DNA of 64,000 bases from Chitinophaga pinensis (GTDB taxonomy: Bacteria > Bacteroidota > Bacteroidia > UBA7662 > JAIXUI01): the NCBI GenBank assembly GCA_943373175.1, contig CALSBM010000007.1, forward strand, positions 2,502 to 66,501, given 5' to 3'. Positions 9,417 to 34,020 of the stretch are shown one piece after another (positions within the stretch are counted from its first letter, which is position 1; each line of letters starts with the position of its first letter). The notes below the pieces were generated by a model. It was given only the letters and a program-made list of their open reading frames with translations. It made no database searches and was not told the origin of the DNA. The translations under genes and the position numbers were made by a program.

Positions 9417-9953
9417 TTAAAATTGGTAGTAAGGTGAAATCATGAGATAAACAACTACTCCGGTTACTGTAACATATAACCAAATAGGAAAAGAAAAGCG
9501 AACGAGTTTTTTGTGTTTAGCCACTTTTCCGGTTAATCCGTAATAAAACGATATCAACACCATGGGCAACACAATCGCTGCAAGCAAAATATGAGTAAGT
9601 AAAATAATTAGATAAACAGGCCTGATGGGATTGTCTTCCGGAAATCTTGTTTCTACTCCAAAAGCATGAAAGGTGACATAAGACAAGAGAAATAAGGAAC
9701 TGAGTGCAAAGGCTATGAGATTTAGCTTCTTATGTAAATCAATGTTTTTGCTTTTTATGGCCATAAGGGAAGCTATTAACAACAAGGAAGTTGACCCATT
9801 CAGTATTGCATTAAGCTTAGGAAGAAAGCGAACGAAGTCTGGCATTACTTCCGCTTTTGGCATCATAAACAGTACTACAACCGCTACAAACACTAACATC
9901 GAAACGATGTATATCCACCTTAGTGCGACTGTTTCCTTCACTGATTGTATCAT
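9417..9953 (-). CDS. DUF420-like four-TM membrane protein of cytochrome oxidase clusters
   Basis: 178-aa protein with four TM helices. It overlaps the SCO1 gene by 4 bp, and its position after the SCO gene is typical of caa3 loci. Confidence 0.6.
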   Translation of the reverse strand: MIQSVKETVALRWIYIVSMLVFVAVVVLFMMPKAEVMPDFVRFLPKLNAILNGSTSLLLIASLMAIKSKNIDLHKKLNLIAFALSSLFLLSYVTFHAFGVETRFPEDNPIRPVYLIILLTHILLAAIVLPMVLISFYYGLTGKVAKHKKLVRFSFPIWLYVTVTGVVVYLMISPYYQF

Positions 9954-10654
9954 TTCGAAAGCTTTCTATTTTCAACTGCCGAGGCAATGTCTTTGTTTTC
10001 GTATTCCTTCTTCAATAAACGAATAGCACCCATTAAATCATCGACTTCACGGTTATTGGTGCCATCAAAAATTCCTCGAATTCTTCGGTCTGCATCGATG
10101 AGAAGCATTTTCTCAGAATGAATAAATTGACCATCCTGCTGAGCATCGGGTGAAACCTGAGAGAGGAATTGCTGCTGAATCACTGAATATAAACTATCGC
10201 GACTGCCTGTAAGAAAACTCCACTTGCCCTTTACGGCCTTGTTCTCTATGCTATAATGCTTCAGTACCGAAGGGAAGTCCGTTTCAGGATCCACAGTCAT
10301 GGAAACCATCTGTACCCTATCGTTTTTTATGAAACTATCCTGAATTCGCTTCATCTGCTTTGACATATCAATGCAGATAGTTTTACAGGAAGTAAACATG
10401 AAATTAACTACGGTAAAGCGACCATCCAGCATACGCTCAGTCTGTATCAGACTGTCCTGATCTAAAAAGGTGAACGGCCCTACTTGGTGATAAATAGTAT
10501 CAACCACCGTACGGCCGTTAACCATATTTTCAAAGGGAATTTTCTCTCCGTAAATCGGAAGCTTTACATAATGGTTTGTACCGAAACCCACATAGAGCCA
10601 ATACAGCAGAGGGGGTAAAGCCAATATCAGAAAGAGAACAAGTCCTTTTTTCAA
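9950..10654 (-). CDS. SCO1/SenC family copper chaperone
   Basis: N-terminal TM anchor plus a thioredoxin-like domain. The FMFTSCKTIC sequence carries the CxxxC copper-binding motif. Confidence 0.8.
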   Translation of the reverse strand: MKKGLVLFLILALPPLLYWLYVGFGTNHYVKLPIYGEKIPFENMVNGRTVVDTIYHQVGPFTFLDQDSLIQTERMLDGRFTVVNFMFTSCKTICIDMSKQMKRIQDSFIKNDRVQMVSMTVDPETDFPSVLKHYSIENKAVKGKWSFLTGSRDSLYSVIQQQFLSQVSPDAQQDGQFIHSEKMLLIDADRRIRGIFDGTNNREVDDLMGAIRLLKKEYENKDIASAVENRKLSK

Positions 10655-10660
10655 GCTCTT

Positions 10661-10978
10661 TTAATAGCGGATATTCAACCAGTAATTGCTTTCATAAAGC
10701 AATGCTGCTATGATTCCAAGAATGAAAACCAGTGGAACAATAATGCTGTAAATCAGATTGATGCGTTCAAACTTAAGGTGCATGAAATAGGCAACAATGT
10801 AAAATGCCTTAAGCAACGTAAGTACGATGTAAATCACATTCTTGATGGGTTGCGCCATCACACTTTCAGGAATTGCCAGTGCGATGATAAACTCAACCAC
10901 TGTAATAAGGAGAAGTACAAAAAATACTTTCCAGATGCCTTTTATATCGAAACTGCTTTCGTGTTCTGCGTTAGACAT
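10661..10978 (-). CDS. cytochrome c oxidase subunit IV (caa3-type, CoxD/CtaF-like)
   Basis: About 105-aa protein with three TM helices, immediately downstream of coxC. Start taken at MSNAEHES (ATG 10978). Confidence 0.65.
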   Translation of the reverse strand: MSNAEHESSFDIKGIWKVFFVLLLITVVEFIIALAIPESVMAQPIKNVIYIVLTLLKAFYIVAYFMHLKFERINLIYSIIVPLVFILGIIAALLYESNYWLNIRY

Positions 10979-26672: not shown

Positions 26673-28316
26673 TTGAATCGCGCTGCTTTTTCTCTCCGAA
26701 TAAAGGAAGCATTAACCGGATTGGCTGTTGCGGGTAGTCTGGCCTTTACCGATCAATACTTCGAGTTATCGAAGCAATTGGAAATTTTCGCCTCCATGTA
26801 CAAGGAAGTGAACACTTACTATGTCGATGAAATTGAACCTGCTCGTTTCATGCGTACCGGAATTGACGCTATGCTTAAAAGCTTAGACCCTTATACCGAT
26901 TATATCAGCGAATCAGAAATTGAAGATTTTCGGTTTATGACTACCGGGCAATATGGAGGAATTGGCGCATTAGTTTCTAATCGTGACAGTGTAATTGTTA
27001 TAACCGACCCTTATGAAGGGTTTCCGGCACAAAAGGCCGGAATAATGGCCGGTGATTGTTTGTTAGAAGTTGACGATAAAAAAGTTGGAGGAAAATCAAC
27101 TGAAGACATTTCTAAACTGCTCAAAGGTCAACCGAAGACTTCCGTTAAACTCAAGATTAGGCGTGGAAATGAATCTCCTAAAGAGCTAACGATAACCCGA
27201 GAAGAAATTTCGGTAAAGAGTGTTCCATATTACGAAATGCTCAATCAAGAAACCGGCTACATTAAATACACCGGTTTTAAAAGCCAAAGTGGACAAGAAG
27301 TAGCCGATGCCATCAAAGCACTGAAAGCCAAGCAAATGAAGAAATTGATTCTGGATTTGCGGGACAATCCCGGTGGTTCATTAGATGAAGCCATCCGAAT
27401 TTCAGGCTTTTTCATCCCAAAAGGCAGCTTAGTAGTAGATACTAAAGGCAAATACAAGGATTGGGACAAATCCTACAAAACTTCGGAGGCTCCATTAGAC
27501 ACTCAAATCCCGTTGATTGTGTTGATTAATGAAAGCTCCGCATCCGCATCAGAAATTGTATCAGGTGTTGTACAAGACTATGACAGGGCAGTTGTGATGG
27601 GAGTAAAATCGTTTGGTAAAGGATTGGTTCAAACAGTTAGACCATTAACCTACAACACTCAGTTAAAAGTAACAACCGCCAAATACTACACCCCGAGTGG
27701 ACGGTGCGTTCAATCAATCAATTATTCCCAAAAAGGGAAAACAACCCGACCTGACTCACTCAAAGTTGCCTTCAAAACCAAAAATGGACGAACTGTTTAC
27801 GACGGCGGCGGAGTTTCACCTGATTTAGAAGTGAAAGAGCTGGAAAGCCCTTTAGTCTTGAATGCGCTTTTTGAGAAACGGCTATTGTTTGATTTTGCTA
27901 CTAATTATCGTCTTCAAAATCCAACGTTAATCGGAGGAAAAGACTTCCAAATTTCGAACGGACTTTTCCAGGAATTCAAGGCATTTCTTAAAGAACGCAA
28001 GTTCGATTACCTAACTGAAAGCGAAAAAATGTTGGAACAGTTTAAGAATAAAGCGAAAAAAGAACATTACTACGAAGCAGTTAAGGACGAATTTGAAAAA
28101 TTAACGACAACTTACCACCACGACAAAAGTCAGGACGTTGATAAAAACCGACCCGTAATTGAACAAGCATTAAGAGAAGAAATTATCTCCCGATACCTGT
28201 TTCAAAAAGGAAGGATTGAAGCCTCATTATCCACCGATGTCCAGGTTAAGAAAGCGATGGAAGTACTTGGTCAACCAGACATGTACCAAAAATATCTCAA
28301 AAGAACGCAGCCGTGA
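26673..28316 (+). CDS. S41 family C-terminal processing peptidase (PDZ domain)
   Basis: 547-aa protein with a PDZ region (GIMAGDCLLEVDDKKV) and an S41 catalytic region (LINESSASASEIVSG...GVKSFGKG). Confidence 0.85.
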   Translation: MNRAAFSLRIKEALTGLAVAGSLAFTDQYFELSKQLEIFASMYKEVNTYYVDEIEPARFMRTGIDAMLKSLDPYTDYISESEIEDFRFMTTGQYGGIGALVSNRDSVIVITDPYEGFPAQKAGIMAGDCLLEVDDKKVGGKSTEDISKLLKGQPKTSVKLKIRRGNESPKELTITREEISVKSVPYYEMLNQETGYIKYTGFKSQSGQEVADAIKALKAKQMKKLILDLRDNPGGSLDEAIRISGFFIPKGSLVVDTKGKYKDWDKSYKTSEAPLDTQIPLIVLINESSASASEIVSGVVQDYDRAVVMGVKSFGKGLVQTVRPLTYNTQLKVTTAKYYTPSGRCVQSINYSQKGKTTRPDSLKVAFKTKNGRTVYDGGGVSPDLEVKELESPLVLNALFEKRLLFDFATNYRLQNPTLIGGKDFQISNGLFQEFKAFLKERKFDYLTESEKMLEQFKNKAKKEHYYEAVKDEFEKLTTTYHHDKSQDVDKNRPVIEQALREEIISRYLFQKGRIEASLSTDVQVKKAMEVLGQPDMYQKYLKRTQP

Positions 28317-29140
28317 TTTTAACCTATGACCTGATAATCCTGCTTGTAGCAGGGCTATCTGCCGGATTTCTTGCAGGATTATTAGGCGTAGGAGGAGGAA
28401 TTATCTTTGTGCCGGTGCTTTCTTGGTATCTCGGAAAAACTGGCGTTGATAGCCACGTTGAAGTAATTATGGTAATAGCTAACTCGCTTGCTTTAGCGTG
28501 TATTATGGGCATCAGTGGAACACTCAGCCAAAAGAAAAAAGGCTATTTCTTCCCTGCTCCTACTTTAGCACTTGGATTAGGAGGTGCTGTAACCTCAGTT
28601 GCAACAGCTTATCTTATTTCTCATACCCAAGTTTACGATAAACGGCTATTCGGAATTGTTTTCTCTATTCTGTTGATACCCTTGATTGTAAAAATGTTTC
28701 GGGCTAAAGAGAGTGAAGATTCAAACGAAACTTCTACTAATAGTTCCAGCAATTTTCCTCGTTGGAGGCTGCTATTAATCGGATTACTTACCGGCGTTGT
28801 TTCCGCCTTGAGTGGGTTAGGTGGAGGCGTAATCATGATTCCGTTGCTAAATTCTTGGGCTAAATTCAGCATGCGTAAATCGGGTGCTATATCCTTATCG
28901 AGCATTGTCATACTTTCATTTTTCATGAGTTTGTATTACATGACAACCAGTGCCACGGAAGTGCCCAAGATGCCTCTCACATTGGGCTACATTCACCTTC
29001 CAGTATTACTTCCTTTAGCGTTAGGAATCACCGTATCGGCACCCTTTGGTGTTAAGATGGCACATAAAGTTAATGGGCACACCATCAAGTGGATTTTTGT
29101 AGCGCTTTTCACTGTGATACTCATCCAAATGAATTGGTGA
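28313..29140 (+). CDS. sulfite exporter TauE/SafE family membrane protein
   Basis: Duplicated four-TM halves, each with a GxGGGxxxxP-like motif (GVGGGIIFVPVL, GLGGGVIMIPLL). Confidence 0.75.
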   Translation: MILTYDLIILLVAGLSAGFLAGLLGVGGGIIFVPVLSWYLGKTGVDSHVEVIMVIANSLALACIMGISGTLSQKKKGYFFPAPTLALGLGGAVTSVATAYLISHTQVYDKRLFGIVFSILLIPLIVKMFRAKESEDSNETSTNSSSNFPRWRLLLIGLLTGVVSALSGLGGGVIMIPLLNSWAKFSMRKSGAISLSSIVILSFFMSLYYMTTSATEVPKMPLTLGYIHLPVLLPLALGITVSAPFGVKMAHKVNGHTIKWIFVALFTVILIQMNW

Positions 29141-29548
29141 TATACTGCTAACTATTCACTTCTGATAATATCCCTCCGAGCAGCCTCAGCCTCAATACTA
29201 AAAAGTCCCCAAACGACTATCTCGATGGGGACTTTTGCATTGCGTAGTGTTGGATGGTACTTGGTATTGAGTGTGAAGCTAGAGAATCTTCGTCGATGCT
29301 GACACAGGTTAATTTCTAGTTTCCTTTGATGAAATGGGTCGATTCCGTAATGCCTTACATTTCGATTTTACCCTCCTTACCCAAAATAGTTAACTCATAT
29401 TGCTGATTTTAGCCATCTTTATCACATTTTTAAAGCATCTGCTATGATTACAAATTTTGCAACTAACTAACTATTTTCTTTGTCTTTTATGCTGTAATAA
29501 TCTTTGGTCGGAGCTGTGTATTAGTTTCTATCTATTGCCATTAATTAC

Positions 29549-29911
29549 TTATTTAAAATTATCTATTATTCTAGATTTGTCTTCATTTTCTTTATCGTTC
29601 TTATGATACAATTCAATGAATGTAATTTTTTGTTCGTCAGGAAAGTACGCATAAATTAATCTTAGACCTGAATTTACTCCTCTTCCTTTTAATGCCTTAC
29701 AAGCAATTTTTTTAACCTTAATGACACACGTTTCTAAACCCAAATTATCAATACGGAAACTAAAAGGAGGACTTTCACCAGGTTCGTCATTCAGGTCTAA
29801 CTTCACCACTTCCAAATCATCGTTGAGCGTTCTGTATTTTTTTAAAAGGTTCTTCAAATCCTTTTTAAATGTTGAAAGTTCATAAAATTCAATATTGTTC
29901 ATCATCTTCAT
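29549..29911 (-). CDS. RelE/ParE-superfamily type II toxin-like protein
   Basis: 120-aa protein. The core IKVKKIACKALKGRGVNSGLRLIYAYFPDEQKITFIELYHKNDK follows the RelE/ParE pattern: basic beta-strand, G(K/R)(R)G..R, hydrophobic Y.K, then a basic C-terminal region. It overlaps the upstream antitoxin-like gene by 23 bp. Confidence 0.55.
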   Translation of the reverse strand: MKMMNNIEFYELSTFKKDLKNLLKKYRTLNDDLEVVKLDLNDEPGESPPFSFRIDNLGLETCVIKVKKIACKALKGRGVNSGLRLIYAYFPDEQKITFIELYHKNDKENEDKSRIIDNFK

Positions 29912-30689
29912 AAACTCTAATTGAATAAGGTGGTCTTCTGTAAAAAGCCAATTCGTAATTTATTTCTTCACCTTCTTTTGATGCCTTCCAAGGTTTATCA
30001 CCGTGCGAATAGTTGCTGAGCATAGCCGCACTCCAATCACTCATTTGTTCCATAACCCTGTCAATAATATCTTTCTCGCTTGCCTTTAACTCAGTTAAAT
30101 CAGCTTTCTCTAAAGGCAAATAACGAGTTTGAGGATAACCATGATATTCGGTTTTTACTCTTTGCAACTGCCCTATTTCAATCATTTGACCAATAATCAT
30201 ATCAAAATTTTGCGGAACTGGCCCATAAGGTAATTTGCGATATGTAGCACCTGTTAAATGCTCCTCATACAATTCGTAATAATTAAAATCCGAAAAATAC
30301 AGTAACTTATATAGAACCGTTTCACCGACATTAGGCTTACCTGCACAGCGTTCAAGGATATACAATAAGACATTTTTGAACTTGCCGATTTGTAGAGTAG
30401 GCACAGAAATACGTTCTTCCACTTTCTTGGCCTTATTTTCTTCTTTGCCTTCAACCTCTTGATTTGCCGAGAAATTCTTAGACATAAAATCATCCAATGA
30501 AAATTTCAAAATCATAGCCAGTTTTTGCAGTTCAAGAATATCGACGCTTCTATTTCCTAACTCTATTTGAGCCAAAGACGGTCGGGAAATTTTGACACTT
30601 TTAGCCAAATCTTCTTGCGACAACCCCTTCATTTTACGAAGTTCGGTTAGCCTCTGACCTATTTGCTTTTGCGACAATTGCATGTTCAT
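29889..30689 (-). CDS. HTH-XRE DNA-binding protein fused to a DUF4065 (Panacea/SocA-like) antitoxin-type domain
   Basis: N-terminus QKQIGQRLTELRKMKGLSQEDLAKSVKISRPSLAQIELGNRSVDILELQKLA is a Cro/C1-type HTH. The C-terminal half, LYKLLYFSDFNYYELYEEHLTGATYRKLPYGPVPQNFD, matches the conserved core of DUF4065. Confidence 0.65.
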   Translation of the reverse strand: MNMQLSQKQIGQRLTELRKMKGLSQEDLAKSVKISRPSLAQIELGNRSVDILELQKLAMILKFSLDDFMSKNFSANQEVEGKEENKAKKVEERISVPTLQIGKFKNVLLYILERCAGKPNVGETVLYKLLYFSDFNYYELYEEHLTGATYRKLPYGPVPQNFDMIIGQMIEIGQLQRVKTEYHGYPQTRYLPLEKADLTELKASEKDIIDRVMEQMSDWSAAMLSNYSHGDKPWKASKEGEEINYELAFYRRPPYSIRVYEDDEQY

Positions 30690-31197
30690 ATCAATTTAAG
30701 TTTCGCTGTTCAACGGAACAAAGATAAGCAATGTTTCAAATTCAAACATACTTCTGTTTCCATACAAAACACTGCCTACACTTGCCAAATGCAATTGAAC
30801 TCAAAGAAAAACTGTTTAAAACCCTTTCTACCGGAAGAAACAAACAAAACATCCAACATACAGCCCGGCAAAAATGGACTCAACAAATGACACAAGCAGC
30901 CTCCGTAGTAAATGATTGCAACCGACGACAGGCAAGAACACCAACCGCCAACATACCACCGAAAATCTAAAAAGCCTCAAAAGACCCTTAGACTTCTTGG
31001 AGAGGATATAAAAAAGTTGATTATTTTGGAGACAGAAACAGGTAAAGAAGAAACACTACCCCAAAATGTGGTTTTCAACCTTAGTACTCACCTCCCATGA
31101 AAGCAAACTACACGCAGTGCGTGAAATCGACTACAGGAGCATGTATCGCGCAAGACTGCGTATATTAATCGTTATGTGCAATTTATAATCCAGACAA

Positions 31198-32109
31198 ATG
31201 AGCGGAGTTGTACAACCAGACTTCAGACAAGGAAATAGGTCTGAATATTTAGCGCAATATCTTCTTTCTTACTTGGGGACAACCGTTTTTGTTCCAAGAC
31301 AAGAAGACGTTGGCATCGACTTTAATTGTGCAATTTCTGTCGCTAGCGGACACGTTGAAGAAATCAAAGAACAATTTCATGTTCAAATAAAATCTAATAT
31401 CACGGACGATATAGAATTTGGTGAGGTTGCAAAGACAGGTAAAAATCAAAAGACCAAATGGAAACAATATGAACTTGAATGGCTCTTTAATCTAGACAAT
31501 CCTCTTTTCATTGGCATTGTAAATAAAGACGAAGGTAGCCTTGAGCTTTATTCAACCTCTTTCATGTGGTATAATTACTGGAACAGAAAATTCTTAACGG
31601 TCAAATTTCTTCCAAATCATCCTAGCGGTGACATGGCAGAAATACACGTTCAAGAAGACATCGATATTTCTGAATGGGCTAGTGACTTAGAAACTACGGA
31701 GCCCAAAGTGAAAACAGTTGTACCAATGGGACCACCTATTATTAAACTGACAAAAGAAAATATAAGACAATCGGAAGTACTGCCAACTCTTAAAAACCTA
31801 TTCAGACTTGCAATACAAATAGAACAAGCTAATATCACTTATAAAAAACTTAGACTGCCCTATTTTAACTGGCTTCATAAGATCTCGACAAATAGCAGTT
31901 TCGTTGGTGGTTTTTTTTACGCAATCGATAAAGTGCTAATTGAAGAACAACGACTATATCAATCTTTAACTCCATTACTAATTTCGCTTGCACTTCTTTA
32001 TAAGCAGACCAACGACCAAAGATTCGAGATTATTATGAACGCACTCAACTTAACTCCTCCGCAGTTCATTCCTCCTGAAGTTAAAGTAGCTCTTGGACTT
32101 CCTGCTTGA
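31198..32109 (+). CDS. hypothetical protein with N-terminal PD-(D/E)xK (DUF4365-like restriction-endonuclease fold) motif
   Basis: 303-aa protein. The N-terminus NRSEYLAQYLLSYLGTTVFVPRQEDVGIDFNCAI...EEIKEQFHVQIKS contains E...D-x-GID...Q-x-K, the typical DUF4365 / PD-(D/E)xK arrangement. The C-terminal roughly 180 aa are unassigned. The gene lies at low GC and is transcribed divergently from the TA pair. Confidence 0.5.
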   Translation: MSGVVQPDFRQGNRSEYLAQYLLSYLGTTVFVPRQEDVGIDFNCAISVASGHVEEIKEQFHVQIKSNITDDIEFGEVAKTGKNQKTKWKQYELEWLFNLDNPLFIGIVNKDEGSLELYSTSFMWYNYWNRKFLTVKFLPNHPSGDMAEIHVQEDIDISEWASDLETTEPKVKTVVPMGPPIIKLTKENIRQSEVLPTLKNLFRLAIQIEQANITYKKLRLPYFNWLHKISTNSSFVGGFFYAIDKVLIEEQRLYQSLTPLLISLALLYKQTNDQRFEIIMNALNLTPPQFIPPEVKVALGLPA

Positions 32110-32264
32110 CGTTAAACTGCACATAACAGCACCTACTTGCATTTTTTTGCGGGTTAGCGCTCAAATGCGTAAATTGACATAGCAAAAAACTGCAAGTAGC
32201 TCCAAAACGTTATGTCCATTCCTAAAACGACAACTACTGCAACTTCAACAATAATGTAAAGACA

Positions 32265-32354
32265 ATGGAAAGAAGAAAATTTATCATCACTACTGGAGGG
32301 TTTGTTTCAGCAACAATGTCTCGTCCTAAAAAAAGTTTACGAGTTAATTTCTAA
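32265..32354 (+). pseudogene. decayed N-terminal fragment of a Tat-secreted Gfo/Idh/MocA-type oxidoreductase
   Basis: A 30-codon ORF encodes MERRKFIITTGGFVSATMSRPKKSLRVNF. This matches the twin-arginine signal (RRxFI) followed by the K(K)xLRVGIIG Rossmann start seen in periplasmic Gfo/Idh/MocA proteins. It stops right there, and the downstream frames are scrambled. Confidence 0.45.
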
Positions 32355-32638
32355 ATAGTGTTGGCAGCCACATGGTACAAAGGATAAAGCTCTGGAAATT
32401 CTTTGTCGGTTCTAAAGTAGCGGTTCGGGGATGTGCTAAAGGGGTCTATAAGCTCCGGATTATCCAGCGATTTTCCCACCTCAGTGAATGCGTGTGCTTC
32501 TTAATTCAATGTCCATCTTGACTATTAGCCCAAGAAGAAGTATTTACCTATTTGTTTAGCCAGGTAAAAATGCAGCCTCCACAACCACCACGTTACTCCC
32601 TCGTCCGAGAGGGCTTCGGTTCAACAAATTCTACCCAA

Positions 32639-33271
32639 CTACCTATACAATTCCGGGAAATACTCTCGAAGAATAGACAATGGATTTTGATTGGTATGAT
32701 GGACAGGAGCAGTTATCCTTAACCGCTTTGCAGCTTCGCGGTGTTGTATCGAATCTTCAATAAAAAGACAATCTTCTGGATTGAGGTTTTGTTCGTTTAA
32801 CAAAAGCTGAAAAAATGCTTCCTCCGGCTTTCTGGTTCCACATTCATAACTCAGATAAACTTTAGTGAACATTTCCTGAAAGTTGAATATTCCCCTTTTT
32901 TCTAAACCCTGATAAATAGTCTGAATGTGCAATACATTGGTGTTAGAAAAAAGAAAGCAAGGAATATCATTCGCTCTTAATGGAGCAAGAAGTGCCAGCC
33001 TTTCATCTGGTAAATCAAGCAGAATGCTATCCCATGCCTCCCTTATTTGAGCATCTGTAAGGGCAAGACCGGATAGCCTTCTTATTTCTTGATAAAACTG
33101 GTTTTCAGAAATTTTGCCTGTTTCTAATAAATCAAAAACTACCTGTTGTTCCGCCTGGCTGTAACTGTTGCCAAAATCACGGTAGCCTAACGCTTCAAAT
33201 GCCTTACGGGGTGCCTGATAATCAATATTGATTAAAACTCCTCCGAAATCAAAAATTACTGCTTTCATCAA
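32639..33271 (-). CDS. HAD family hydrolase (subfamily IA)
   Basis: Motif I VIFDFGGVL is followed by downstream HAD motifs. Overlaps the SDR gene by 4 bp. Confidence 0.8.
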   Translation of the reverse strand: MMKAVIFDFGGVLINIDYQAPRKAFEALGYRDFGNSYSQAEQQVVFDLLETGKISENQFYQEIRRLSGLALTDAQIREAWDSILLDLPDERLALLAPLRANDIPCFLFSNTNVLHIQTIYQGLEKRGIFNFQEMFTKVYLSYECGTRKPEEAFFQLLLNEQNLNPEDCLFIEDSIQHREAAKRLRITAPVHHTNQNPLSILREYFPELYR

Positions 33272-34020
33272 TCAAAATCGCCGGCAATTGGTCGTAATAA
33301 TACTTCTTCCAGCACCGCAGATGGGGATAAATTCCAAGCCTGAAAAACGACTTCCGCCACATCAGAGGGTTGCATAAAACGGGAAGCGGGCAGTTCAGTT
33401 CCCGCCCAAGAGTTGGTTAGTGTAGCTCCCGGAAGCAAAGAGGTTACTGCTACTTGGGTGTTCTTCAATTCTTCCCGCAGCACTTTGCTCATTCCCAACA
33501 AAGCAAACTTACTGATGCAATAAGAACCTCCATTAACATAAGCAGTGATGCTTGCCGTGGAGCACATGTTCACAATCAATGCTTTATCCGACTTTTTTAA
33601 TTCCTGTAGCAATGCTCGGGTGAGGTGGTAAGCCGAGGCAACATTGGTGTTCATCTGTAATTCAAAAACGCCATCCGGCTCCTCAGCAATTGATCCTGGT
33701 CGAAAAACCCCTGCATTATTTACTAATAGGTGAACGGAGTTAAACCTTCGCTGCACCTCACCTGCAAACTTGATTACTTCATCCTTCACCGACATATCGG
33801 CCACAAGTCCGGCAAAAGATTGTTGAGGATAGCGTTGCACTAACTTGTCTTGAAGTTCTTTCAAATCCGATGCAGACCGCGCATTAAAAATGACCGAAAA
33901 TCCGGCCTGGGCTAAGCGTTCAACTACTGCCTTTCCGATGCCTTTACCAGCACCGGTTACTACTGCATTCAACACAATCCTATCGTTAATTAAATCGAAG
34001 CATGAGGTCGCCCTTCTCAA
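33268..34020 (-). CDS. SDR family oxidoreductase
   Basis: TGAGKGIGKA cofactor motif and Y-x3-K catalytic residues (YCISKFAL), 250 aa. Confidence 0.8.
   Translation of the reverse strand: MRRATSCFDLINDRIVLNAVVTGAGKGIGKAVVERLAQAGFSVIFNARSASDLKELQDKLVQRYPQQSFAGLVADMSVKDEVIKFAGEVQRRFNSVHLLVNNAGVFRPGSIAEEPDGVFELQMNTNVASAYHLTRALLQELKKSDKALIVNMCSTASITAYVNGGSYCISKFALLGMSKVLREELKNTQVAVTSLLPGATLTNSWAGTELPASRFMQPSDVAEVVFQAWNLSPSAVLEEVLLRPIAGDFD

Follow-up and report, generated by a model that had tools for sequence, protein, structure and literature searches.

What might a solitary, nuclease-like gene be doing next to a toxin-antitoxin (TA) pair, in a small islet of low guanine-cytosine (GC) content in a Bacteroidota genome? 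The question is raised by a stretch of 64,000 nucleotides from Chitinophaga pinensis (assembly GCA_943373175.1, contig CALSBM010000007.1, positions 2,502 to 66,501), referred to as a whole as the window, and in particular by one open reading frame (ORF) in it, gene X, which encodes a two-domain protein. Our proposal for X is a defence DNase gated by a trigger or by oligomerisation, a reading to which, taking the defence role of this copy and the gating jointly, we give a probability of roughly one half. The most fitting description is that of a DREN-type nuclease whose two-domain architecture is new and independent of Argonaute, and which has defence-operon associations. The features of the gene are the following.

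31198..32109, + strand: X, a complete ATG-initiated ORF of 303 aa plus stop, two-domain protein
31198..31602, + strand: PD-(D/E)xK nuclease domain of DUF4365/DREN type, residues ~1-135 (Pfam, motif, Foldseek)
31243..31245, + strand: codon of E16, a conserved acidic residue in helix alpha1 (99% in 114 members)
31306..31320, + strand: codons of D37-V-G39-I-D41, the DxGxD half of the DUF4365 signature (motif, conservation)
31384..31392, + strand: codons of Q63-I-K65, the QxK half of the signature, in strand beta3 (motif, conservation)
31603..32106, + strand: family-specific C-terminal alpha/beta domain, residues ~136-303 (high-confidence model)

The N-terminal sequence quoted in the preliminary description of this locus was confirmed at these coordinates in the ORF list, and a copy of X with 100% identity and unchanged gene order is present on a contig of a second sample (L024). 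Full-length homologs range from 81% down to ~23% identity. Comparison with five orthologs gives proportions of nonsynonymous differences (pN) of 0.12-0.26 against saturated synonymous ones (pS) of 0.68-0.81, that is, pN/pS of ~0.15-0.33; purifying selection acts on both halves of the protein, the C-terminal domain evolving about twice as fast as the N-terminal one. By the identical copy, the full-length homologs and these substitution patterns, X is a genuine, intact gene under purifying selection. The AlphaFold2 (AF2) model, obtained with an alignment of 114 sequences, reaches a mean predicted local distance difference test (pLDDT) of 96.5 and a predicted template modelling score (pTM) of 0.91.

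The N-terminal nuclease domain

The preliminary description had assigned the N-terminus to a DUF4365-type PD-(D/E)xK domain, and motif, conservation and fold agree on this point. Among 114 diverse relatives (20-81% identity), which are the set used for all conservation values given here, D37 is kept in 99%, G39 and D41 in 100%, Q63 in 91% and K65 in 90% of the sequences. The DxGxD...QxK arrangement is the published DUF4365 signature (PMC11297309), and the residues that compose it in X are the equivalents of those required in three characterized proteins: NbaSPARDA, whose nuclease is inactivated by D41A/Q60A/K62A (bioRxiv 10.1101/2023.06.08.544223), TmuRE, of which an inactive mutant was made by Q62A/K64A (PMC10810196), and EAT16, whose cytotoxicity is lost on mutation of the motif D42/D46/Q66/K68 (PMC11297309). 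The metal-binding role of E16 would follow by analogy with the general PD-(D/E)xK fold. In X 21 residues lie between D41 and Q63; the gap of 22 aa reported earlier between '...NCAI' and 'HVQIKS' has to be corrected to 14 residues (S47-F60).

Concerning sequence profiles, X matches PF14280 (DUF4365) with 16.8 bits and an E value of 0.0075, its residues 21-115 aligning to profile positions 10-99 of 139. The hidden Markov model (HMM) check proposed earlier thus returned a match, although one whose score stays under the cut-off of the family, which places X in a sister or fringe group outside the formal Pfam family. PF14280 also matches 9 of 11 close members and 47 of the 114 diverse ones (E<=0.1, best E 3.8e-6), and is the sole recurrent Pfam family among the 114 scanned relatives. 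A match to Big_14 (E 0.019, in 5 close members only) was judged spurious, since it overlaps the nuclease beta-strands and is absent in diverse members. X has no match in NCBIfam, and searches of the PDB sequences with the single protein and with two profiles yielded only noise (E>=0.1).

The modelled domain shows the order alpha1-beta1-beta2-beta3-(beta hairpins)-alpha2-beta4-beta5-alpha3. When the model of X was compared with the PDB by Foldseek, the best 13 matches were all DREN-APAZ chains of SPARDA systems (probability 0.80-1.00, being 1.00 in seven of the top eight; E 3e-3 to 6.5e-2), with alignments of ~118-129 columns in 12 of the 13, the remaining one extending over 220 columns at a root-mean-square deviation (rmsd) of 23.5. 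A shallower first AF2 model gave the same ranking with weaker scores. The structure prediction suggested earlier hence led, through the high-confidence model, to a DREN fold match. The recurrence of PF14280, the signature, the mutated equivalents and the fold together make the assignment to the DUF4365/DREN type solid despite the weak Pfam score, and the N-terminal domain of X very probably has the DUF4365-type nuclease fold.

The comparison with SPARDA is instructive both for what is shared and for what is not. NbaSPARDA, XauSPARDA and TmuRE-Ago display the same PD-(D/E)xK sub-fold and are the best structural matches (probability up to 1.00 over ~125 residues); the signature occupies nearly the same positions (D41/Q60/K62 in NbaSPARDA, D41/Q63/K65 in X), and in both cases the nuclease is an N-terminal domain of ~130 aa. 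In contrast, identity in the aligned region is only 13-16%, no APAZ domain was found in X, the alignment to DREN-APAZ covering the nuclease domain only, and no short Argonaute (MID-PIWI) gene is adjacent to it; nor was a Piwi gene seen in any surveyed X locus. SPARDA is activated through filament formation by the Argonaute, whereas any gating of X must be intrinsic or come from its C-terminal domain. Another protein described with this type of N-terminal domain is EAT16 (WP_082303719.1), a toxin of Photorhabdus associated with an extracellular contractile injection system (eCIS), which, compared by description, resembles X in joining an N-terminal DUF4365 to a second domain, and whose expression is toxic to E. 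coli (PMC11297309); it is delivered by the contractile injection system, whereas no eCIS genes are found near X.

Does this domain cut? The glutamine of QxK stands where (D/E)xK classically has an acidic residue, and inactive restriction endonuclease sensor domains are described as common in immune systems (PMC12839542), so that X could be imagined as a catalytically inactive PD-(D/E)xK derivative with a DNA-binding or sensor function. QxK is, however, the native and experimentally required configuration of active DUF4365 nucleases, and a signature conserved at 90-100% is quite unlike the eroded motifs by which inactive restriction endonucleases are recognised. We regard an inactive derivative as extremely unlikely, and X as probably catalytically active.

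The C-terminal domain and the family

The remainder of X had been described as resembling nothing recognisable, which holds: the ~165 aa of the C-terminal domain have no match in Pfam, NCBIfam, PADLOC, the PDB sequences or Foldseek against the PDB, and neither Pfam nor Foldseek gives an SRA, PUA, EVE or YTH-like match, such as could have pointed to the modification-reading domain of a type IV (modification-dependent) restriction enzyme. The model is well defined, with strands at 171-185, a long helix at 194-217, a beta-hairpin at 222-241 and helices at 243-299, and the only strongly conserved positions are L177, G178, P180, N212 and L264.

When a profile is built from this domain alone, all it recovers are proteins of 257-305 aa that have the architecture of X, or fragments of such proteins. 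The idea of a swappable sensor was rejected on these grounds: the part described earlier as a putative sensor or effector is not an exchangeable module, the domain being seen only in same-architecture proteins of ~290-305 aa. Since it is never seen with another N-terminal domain, the two domains form an obligate unit.

The label of orphan protein, also given to X earlier, does not survive an exhaustive profile search among 1.84 billion representatives, which yields 1,178 clusters at 50% identity with E<=1e-3, 679 with E<=1e-10 and 144 with E<=1e-30, nearly all of ~300 aa and matched end to end; a word-indexed search finds 12 relatives. The named proteins of the family are all annotated as hypothetical, except for one JGI entry labelled DUF4365. 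No relatives were found in IMG/VR viral contigs, a result that says nothing for or against a role in defence.

Two side observations concern the edges of the family. Four acidobacterial loci (L013, L014, L041 and L044) encode proteins that match residues 1-120 only, with 35-38% identity, and may combine the nuclease domain with a different C-terminus. In a metagenome-assembled genome (MAG) of Planctomycetaceae (L011, 9983-10795) the frame of the homolog closes at 162 aa while the tblastn match runs on, which probably reflects either a frameshift in a pseudogene or an error of the assembly.

Genomic contexts and the surroundings of X

The relatives were divided into close orthologs (62-81% identity) and distant relatives (25-35% identity). 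The close orthologs occupy seven contexts, each different from the others:

Window and L024: PanAT TA pair and HAD hydrolase
L001 (Ferruginibacter, 81%): rpsF-rpsR-rplI operon and a glycosyltransferase
L002-4: upstream a leucine-rich repeat (LRR) protein, downstream a pair of a 71-aa protein and a PIN_3 protein
L005-9: downstream two unannotated ORFs, putative zinc ribbons
L025: downstream a protein with six DUF4379 treble-clef repeats
L026: a secreted S8 peptidase
L048/49 (63% ortholog): directly after a type I hsdR (T1RH-like_C, E 2.6e-118)

The contexts of the distant relatives include the following:

L021/22: PglX-X-PglZ-BrxL, with 3-nt intergenic gaps
L020: PglX-X-PDC-S02-PglZ-BrxL
L015/16: HsdR-HsdM-X-HsdS
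L012 and L031: X-HsdS
L018/19: IIG methylase ... PDC-S39-X-HEC-05/GmrSD
L034: X adjoining a C5-methylase
L023: ThiF/E2/M78 cluster with IS256
L017: conjugative region with Fic and IS3

Nuclease-fold relatives thus recur in defence loci, as had been anticipated, in the form of bacteriophage exclusion (BREX), type I restriction-modification (R-M) and GmrSD contexts. Those members that lie inside BREX and type I operons have in common a distinctive N-terminus, ...AEYLAQYILSA[IL]A[IV]T..., and, by this sequence feature, look like one subclade. The slots that distant relatives take, between pglX and pglZ or between hsdM and hsdS, are like those of embedded accessory nucleases. BrxU is one that occupies the pglX-pglZ slot. 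Auxiliary nucleases embedded within BREX core loci, GmrSD included, are described in PMC12839542; GmrSD itself combines ParB/DUF262 with HNH and is thus of a different fold and family from the DUF4365-like X. A position within or beside a BREX or type I operon is found for L012, L015/16, L020, L021/22, L031 and L048, and not for the window copy.

As to individual loci, one 309-aa homolog (P0164) is found on two contigs, L015 and L016, each time inside a type I operon. The hsdM of L015 was missed by the gene caller, which reports a 75-aa fragment, and a 416-aa ORF there is 100% identical to the L016 HsdM over 409 aa; the difference between both loci is an annotation artefact and not a rearrangement. 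In L005 (7373-8798) two cysteine-rich ORFs of 278 and 195 aa without Pfam match follow the X ortholog, and on our own reading of the motif CPILGIELD...PSIDRI...GY..N..I.S..AN..K they would be of a zinc-ribbon plus His-Me/HNH-like type. In L025 (1286-2599) the X ortholog is followed by the 438-aa cysteine-rich protein with the six DUF4379 repeats. The cysteine-rich ORFs of both loci may represent additional genes, selfish or defensive, that move together with X.

These contexts, together with the structural comparison, bear on the possibility that X is a housekeeping structure-specific nuclease, for instance a Holliday-junction resolvase of the Hjc/RecU type or a repair enzyme. The DUF4365 topology resembles that of Hjc/Hje, the minimal PD-(D/E)xK core being shared by X with Hjc/Hje, RecU/PrfA and I-Ssp6803I; the RecU/PrfA Holliday-junction resolvases are the next structural neighbours after DREN, and the Ferruginibacter ortholog lies beside the rpsF-rpsR-rplI operon. 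The similarity to the resolvases is nevertheless weak (E 0.3-0.6, probability 0.1-0.25), they carry an ExK instead of a QxK motif, and X has an additional C-terminal domain. Its distribution is patchy and not housekeeping-like either: close-clade patterns find only 5 loci in 185,579 species genomes, synteny is not conserved, the window copy sits in a low-GC islet, and there are relatives that lie within BREX operons, R-M operons or mobile elements. A housekeeping role is accordingly very unlikely. Homologs in conserved metabolic operons, which together with a missing fold match were named in the preliminary description as arguments against a defence nuclease, were not seen among the surveyed contexts, and the fold match is present.

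In the window, the surroundings of X comprise these features:

29141..32638, unstranded: low-GC variable islet between TauE-family and HAD hydrolase genes (GC content); a context, not a demonstrated functional unit
29549..30689, - strand: PanAT-type TA pair (Pfam domains, cluster annotation)
29889..30689, - strand: antitoxin, 266 aa, HTH_3 plus SocA/Panacea (Pfam E 6e-22)
29549..29911, - strand: RelE-like toxin, 120 aa, overlapping the antitoxin by 23 nt
31171..31185, unstranded: upstream arm of an inverted repeat, GTTATGTGCAATTTA, ending 12 nt before the ATG
32113..32127, unstranded: downstream arm, TAAACTGCACATAAC, starting 3 nt after the stop codon and 14/15 complementary to the upstream arm
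32133..32199, + strand: stem-loop (I2) directly after the downstream arm, with 18-nt arms 94% complementary and a 31-nt loop

The islet contains the PanAT-type TA pair, a spacer of 508 bp and X. Its GC content is 0.34-0.38 over 29001-32000, compared with a window average of ~0.43 and 0.41-0.44 in the adjoining bins 28001-29000 and 33001-34000. The neighbours of X are genes for a HAD hydrolase, the antitoxin with its helix-turn-helix (HTH) and Panacea domains, the RelE-like toxin, TauE and an S41 peptidase, the flanks having been identified in L024. Rfam gives no match over 28.9-32.9 kb, and no tRNA lies near the islet as an integration site. At window positions ~32266-32355 a 29-codon ORF, MERRKFIITTGGFVSATMSRPKKSLRVNF, resembles a shortened twin-arginine signal peptide and, going by its sequence, may be what is left of a gene that the insertion of the islet cut short.

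The TA operon and X are arranged head-to-head and diverge across the spacer (30690-31197), which has an unusual C-over-G skew on the + strand (GC skew -0.24 for 30001-31000) and contains short overlapping ORFs only, with no Rfam match. A scan for promoter and terminator consensus sequences gave counts not above those of shuffled sequences, the sigma-70 consensus being unsuited to Bacteroidota.

The pairing of X with a TA module emphasized earlier is therefore real as an arrangement, and recurs only in the identical locus of L024. It could be taken to mean that X and the divergent PanAT pair form a three-gene module, in which the HTH-Panacea antitoxin regulates X from the 508-bp region or X is a second toxin. 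The shared spacer, the HTH DNA-binding domain of the antitoxin, the recurrence in a second sample and the different TA pair (71 aa plus PIN_3) just downstream of the close ortholog in L002 would fit such a module. The L024 locus comes, however, from the same organism, since its X is 100% identical, and is thus not independent, and a Panacea/RelE pair adjoins X in none of the 6 other close-ortholog contexts and in none of the distant ones. The 90%-identity cluster of the toxin, annotated RelE, has 116 members from Pedobacter, Saprospiraceae and other Bacteroidota, and this spread implies that the TA pair travels independently of X. TA modules and defence genes often co-locate in variable islets without being linked. 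A three-gene module is in our view very improbable.

Unexpected, too, is the 15-nt inverted repeat that brackets the gene. None of 100 shuffles matches it, and the pattern ATGTGCARTTWA occurs in the window only as the two arms. In L002, a 62% ortholog in an unrelated context whose synonymous sites are saturated, the arms are GTTGGGTGCAATTAA and the complement of GTTGGGTGCAGTTAA (9949-9963 and 10922-10936), with three identical substitutions in both and the position-11 mismatch kept as in the window. The upstream motif is maintained before the orthologs in L001, L026, L002 and L048 and a homologous downstream arm after those in L002 and L025, and homology between the ortholog loci stops just beyond the arms. 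The stem-loop that follows lies in a region (32105-32215) whose predicted RNA fold has -34.8 kcal/mol (z -3.8, 1 of 200 shuffles being equally stable); no T-tract terminator was called at it, and it is probably a structure of the transcript end.

Three roles can be imagined for the arms: they may be the terminal repeats, now decaying, of a cassette with one gene, elements that pair between the 5' and 3' ends of the mRNA, or operator sites. One explanation built on them treats X as the cargo, or else as the enzyme, of a very small selfish cassette, bounded by the 15-bp inverted repeats and moving between intergenic sites like a free-standing homing endonuclease or a miniature insertion sequence (IS), its placement in immune operons reflecting tolerated insertion sites. 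The tight fit of the repeat around the ORF, the parallel substitutions and shared mismatch in L002, the loss of locus homology just outside the arms and the seven differing contexts all speak for it, as do the zinc-finger ORFs that follow two of the orthologs (six DUF4379 repeats in one, and in the other a His-Me-like nuclease that is a reading of the sequence), while DREN tetramers are reportedly like the PD-(D/E)xK homing endonuclease I-Ssp6803I. The repeat pair is, however, not general: no downstream arm was found in L001 and L048, in L025 complementarity is lost in the homologous register and only a weak repeat is left, L005 has a different, AT-rich inverted repeat, and none is present around any of the distant homologs checked. 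Moreover, no flanking direct repeat that could be a target-site duplication is evident at X, the gene and the motif pair exist in a single copy in the 64-kb window, and in BREX and type I operons the 3-nt gaps or overlaps leave no space for external repeats. We know of no stand-alone PD-(D/E)xK transposase. We consider a selfish cassette of this kind unlikely.

A more specific suggestion, quite unlikely, is that X travels as a self-contained cassette of ~960 bp whose ends are the co-evolving 15-nt inverted repeats GTTRKGTGCARTTWA. These would be either the terminal repeats of an undescribed miniature mobile element that carries a DREN-type nuclease as its single gene, or would mediate mRNA 5'-3' pairing as in the fold-back inhibition of hok, so that translation of a toxic nuclease is blocked until processing of the transcript.

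Proposed function and significance

A gated defence DNase is the reading we prefer for X, and it can be put in the form of a mechanism. X would be a metal-dependent DNA endonuclease with an active site formed by E16, D37, D41, Q63 and K65, and would, as one protein on its own, serve to defend the cell against invading DNA or to exclude it. A constitutive non-specific nuclease without a cognate methylase would be lethal, hence X must be gated. The control of self-association and/or substrate recognition would be exerted by the C-terminal domain, by analogy with DREN, which in isolation is monomeric and inactive and becomes active once four copies assemble into a D2 tetramer (PMC12205087). X would stay silent until it meets a trigger, which could be foreign or modified DNA or the failure of a neighbouring system. 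In the embedded subclade it would serve as an accessory or backup effector inside BREX and type I R-M operons; in the Bacteroidota clade of the window it would move as a solitary one-gene unit, and the window copy would have landed in a small low-GC islet beside an unrelated PanAT pair.

Several observations weigh against this reading. Within 5 kb of X there is no R-M, BREX or other recognised defence gene except the TA pair, and the closest named ortholog (Ferruginibacter, 81%) adjoins its ribosomal-protein operon with no defence neighbour. The evidence from defence operons comes mostly from the relatives of 25-35% identity and not from the window copy, ~12 of the 21 distant contexts are without a recognisable defence gene or too short to judge, and the enrichment in defence contexts is qualitative, stated without a background rate. 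X remains below the PF14280 gathering score (16.8 vs 24.3 bits), has no match in PADLOC-DB 2.0 at E<=1, and the PADLOC matches of its relatives to PDC-M02A are weak (at most 8 of 114, best E 1e-5). Finally, the trigger and the role of the C-terminal domain are purely what we infer, and the family is known from sequence and predicted structure alone.

A precedent for a single-gene system with this kind of N-terminal domain is Divona, from the superintegron of Vibrio cholerae, for which anti-phage activity was shown (bioRxiv 10.1101/2024.07.02.601686). It is described as DUF4365 plus an Mrr-type nuclease plus crr6 (PF08847), a description that sets X apart; neither PF08847 nor Mrr_cat matches any of the 114 members of the X family at E<=0.1. 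Stand-alone PD-(D/E)xK restriction endonucleases are, according to a recent survey (PMC12839542), the commonest auxiliary effectors embedded in BREX loci, and the X family fits this category, though it is not named in the text read.

DUF4365/DREN nucleases are understood mainly as the effector of SPARDA, switched on by an external scaffold. In the X family, with its ~1,200 clusters, the same catalytic module is permanently joined to a well-folded domain of no known kin and is free of Argonaute. In BREX and type I operons, members of the family repeatedly stand right behind the gene of the methyltransferase, which makes X a candidate for one of the unexplained auxiliary or backup nucleases there. 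The effector step of BREX is still debated. Nuclease-fold genes near defence loci are to be expected, and the protein is small, encoded by a single gene and experimentally tractable. If active, X would extend the repertoire of defence by a compact, gated DNase and offer a simple model for how DREN nucleases are kept silent.

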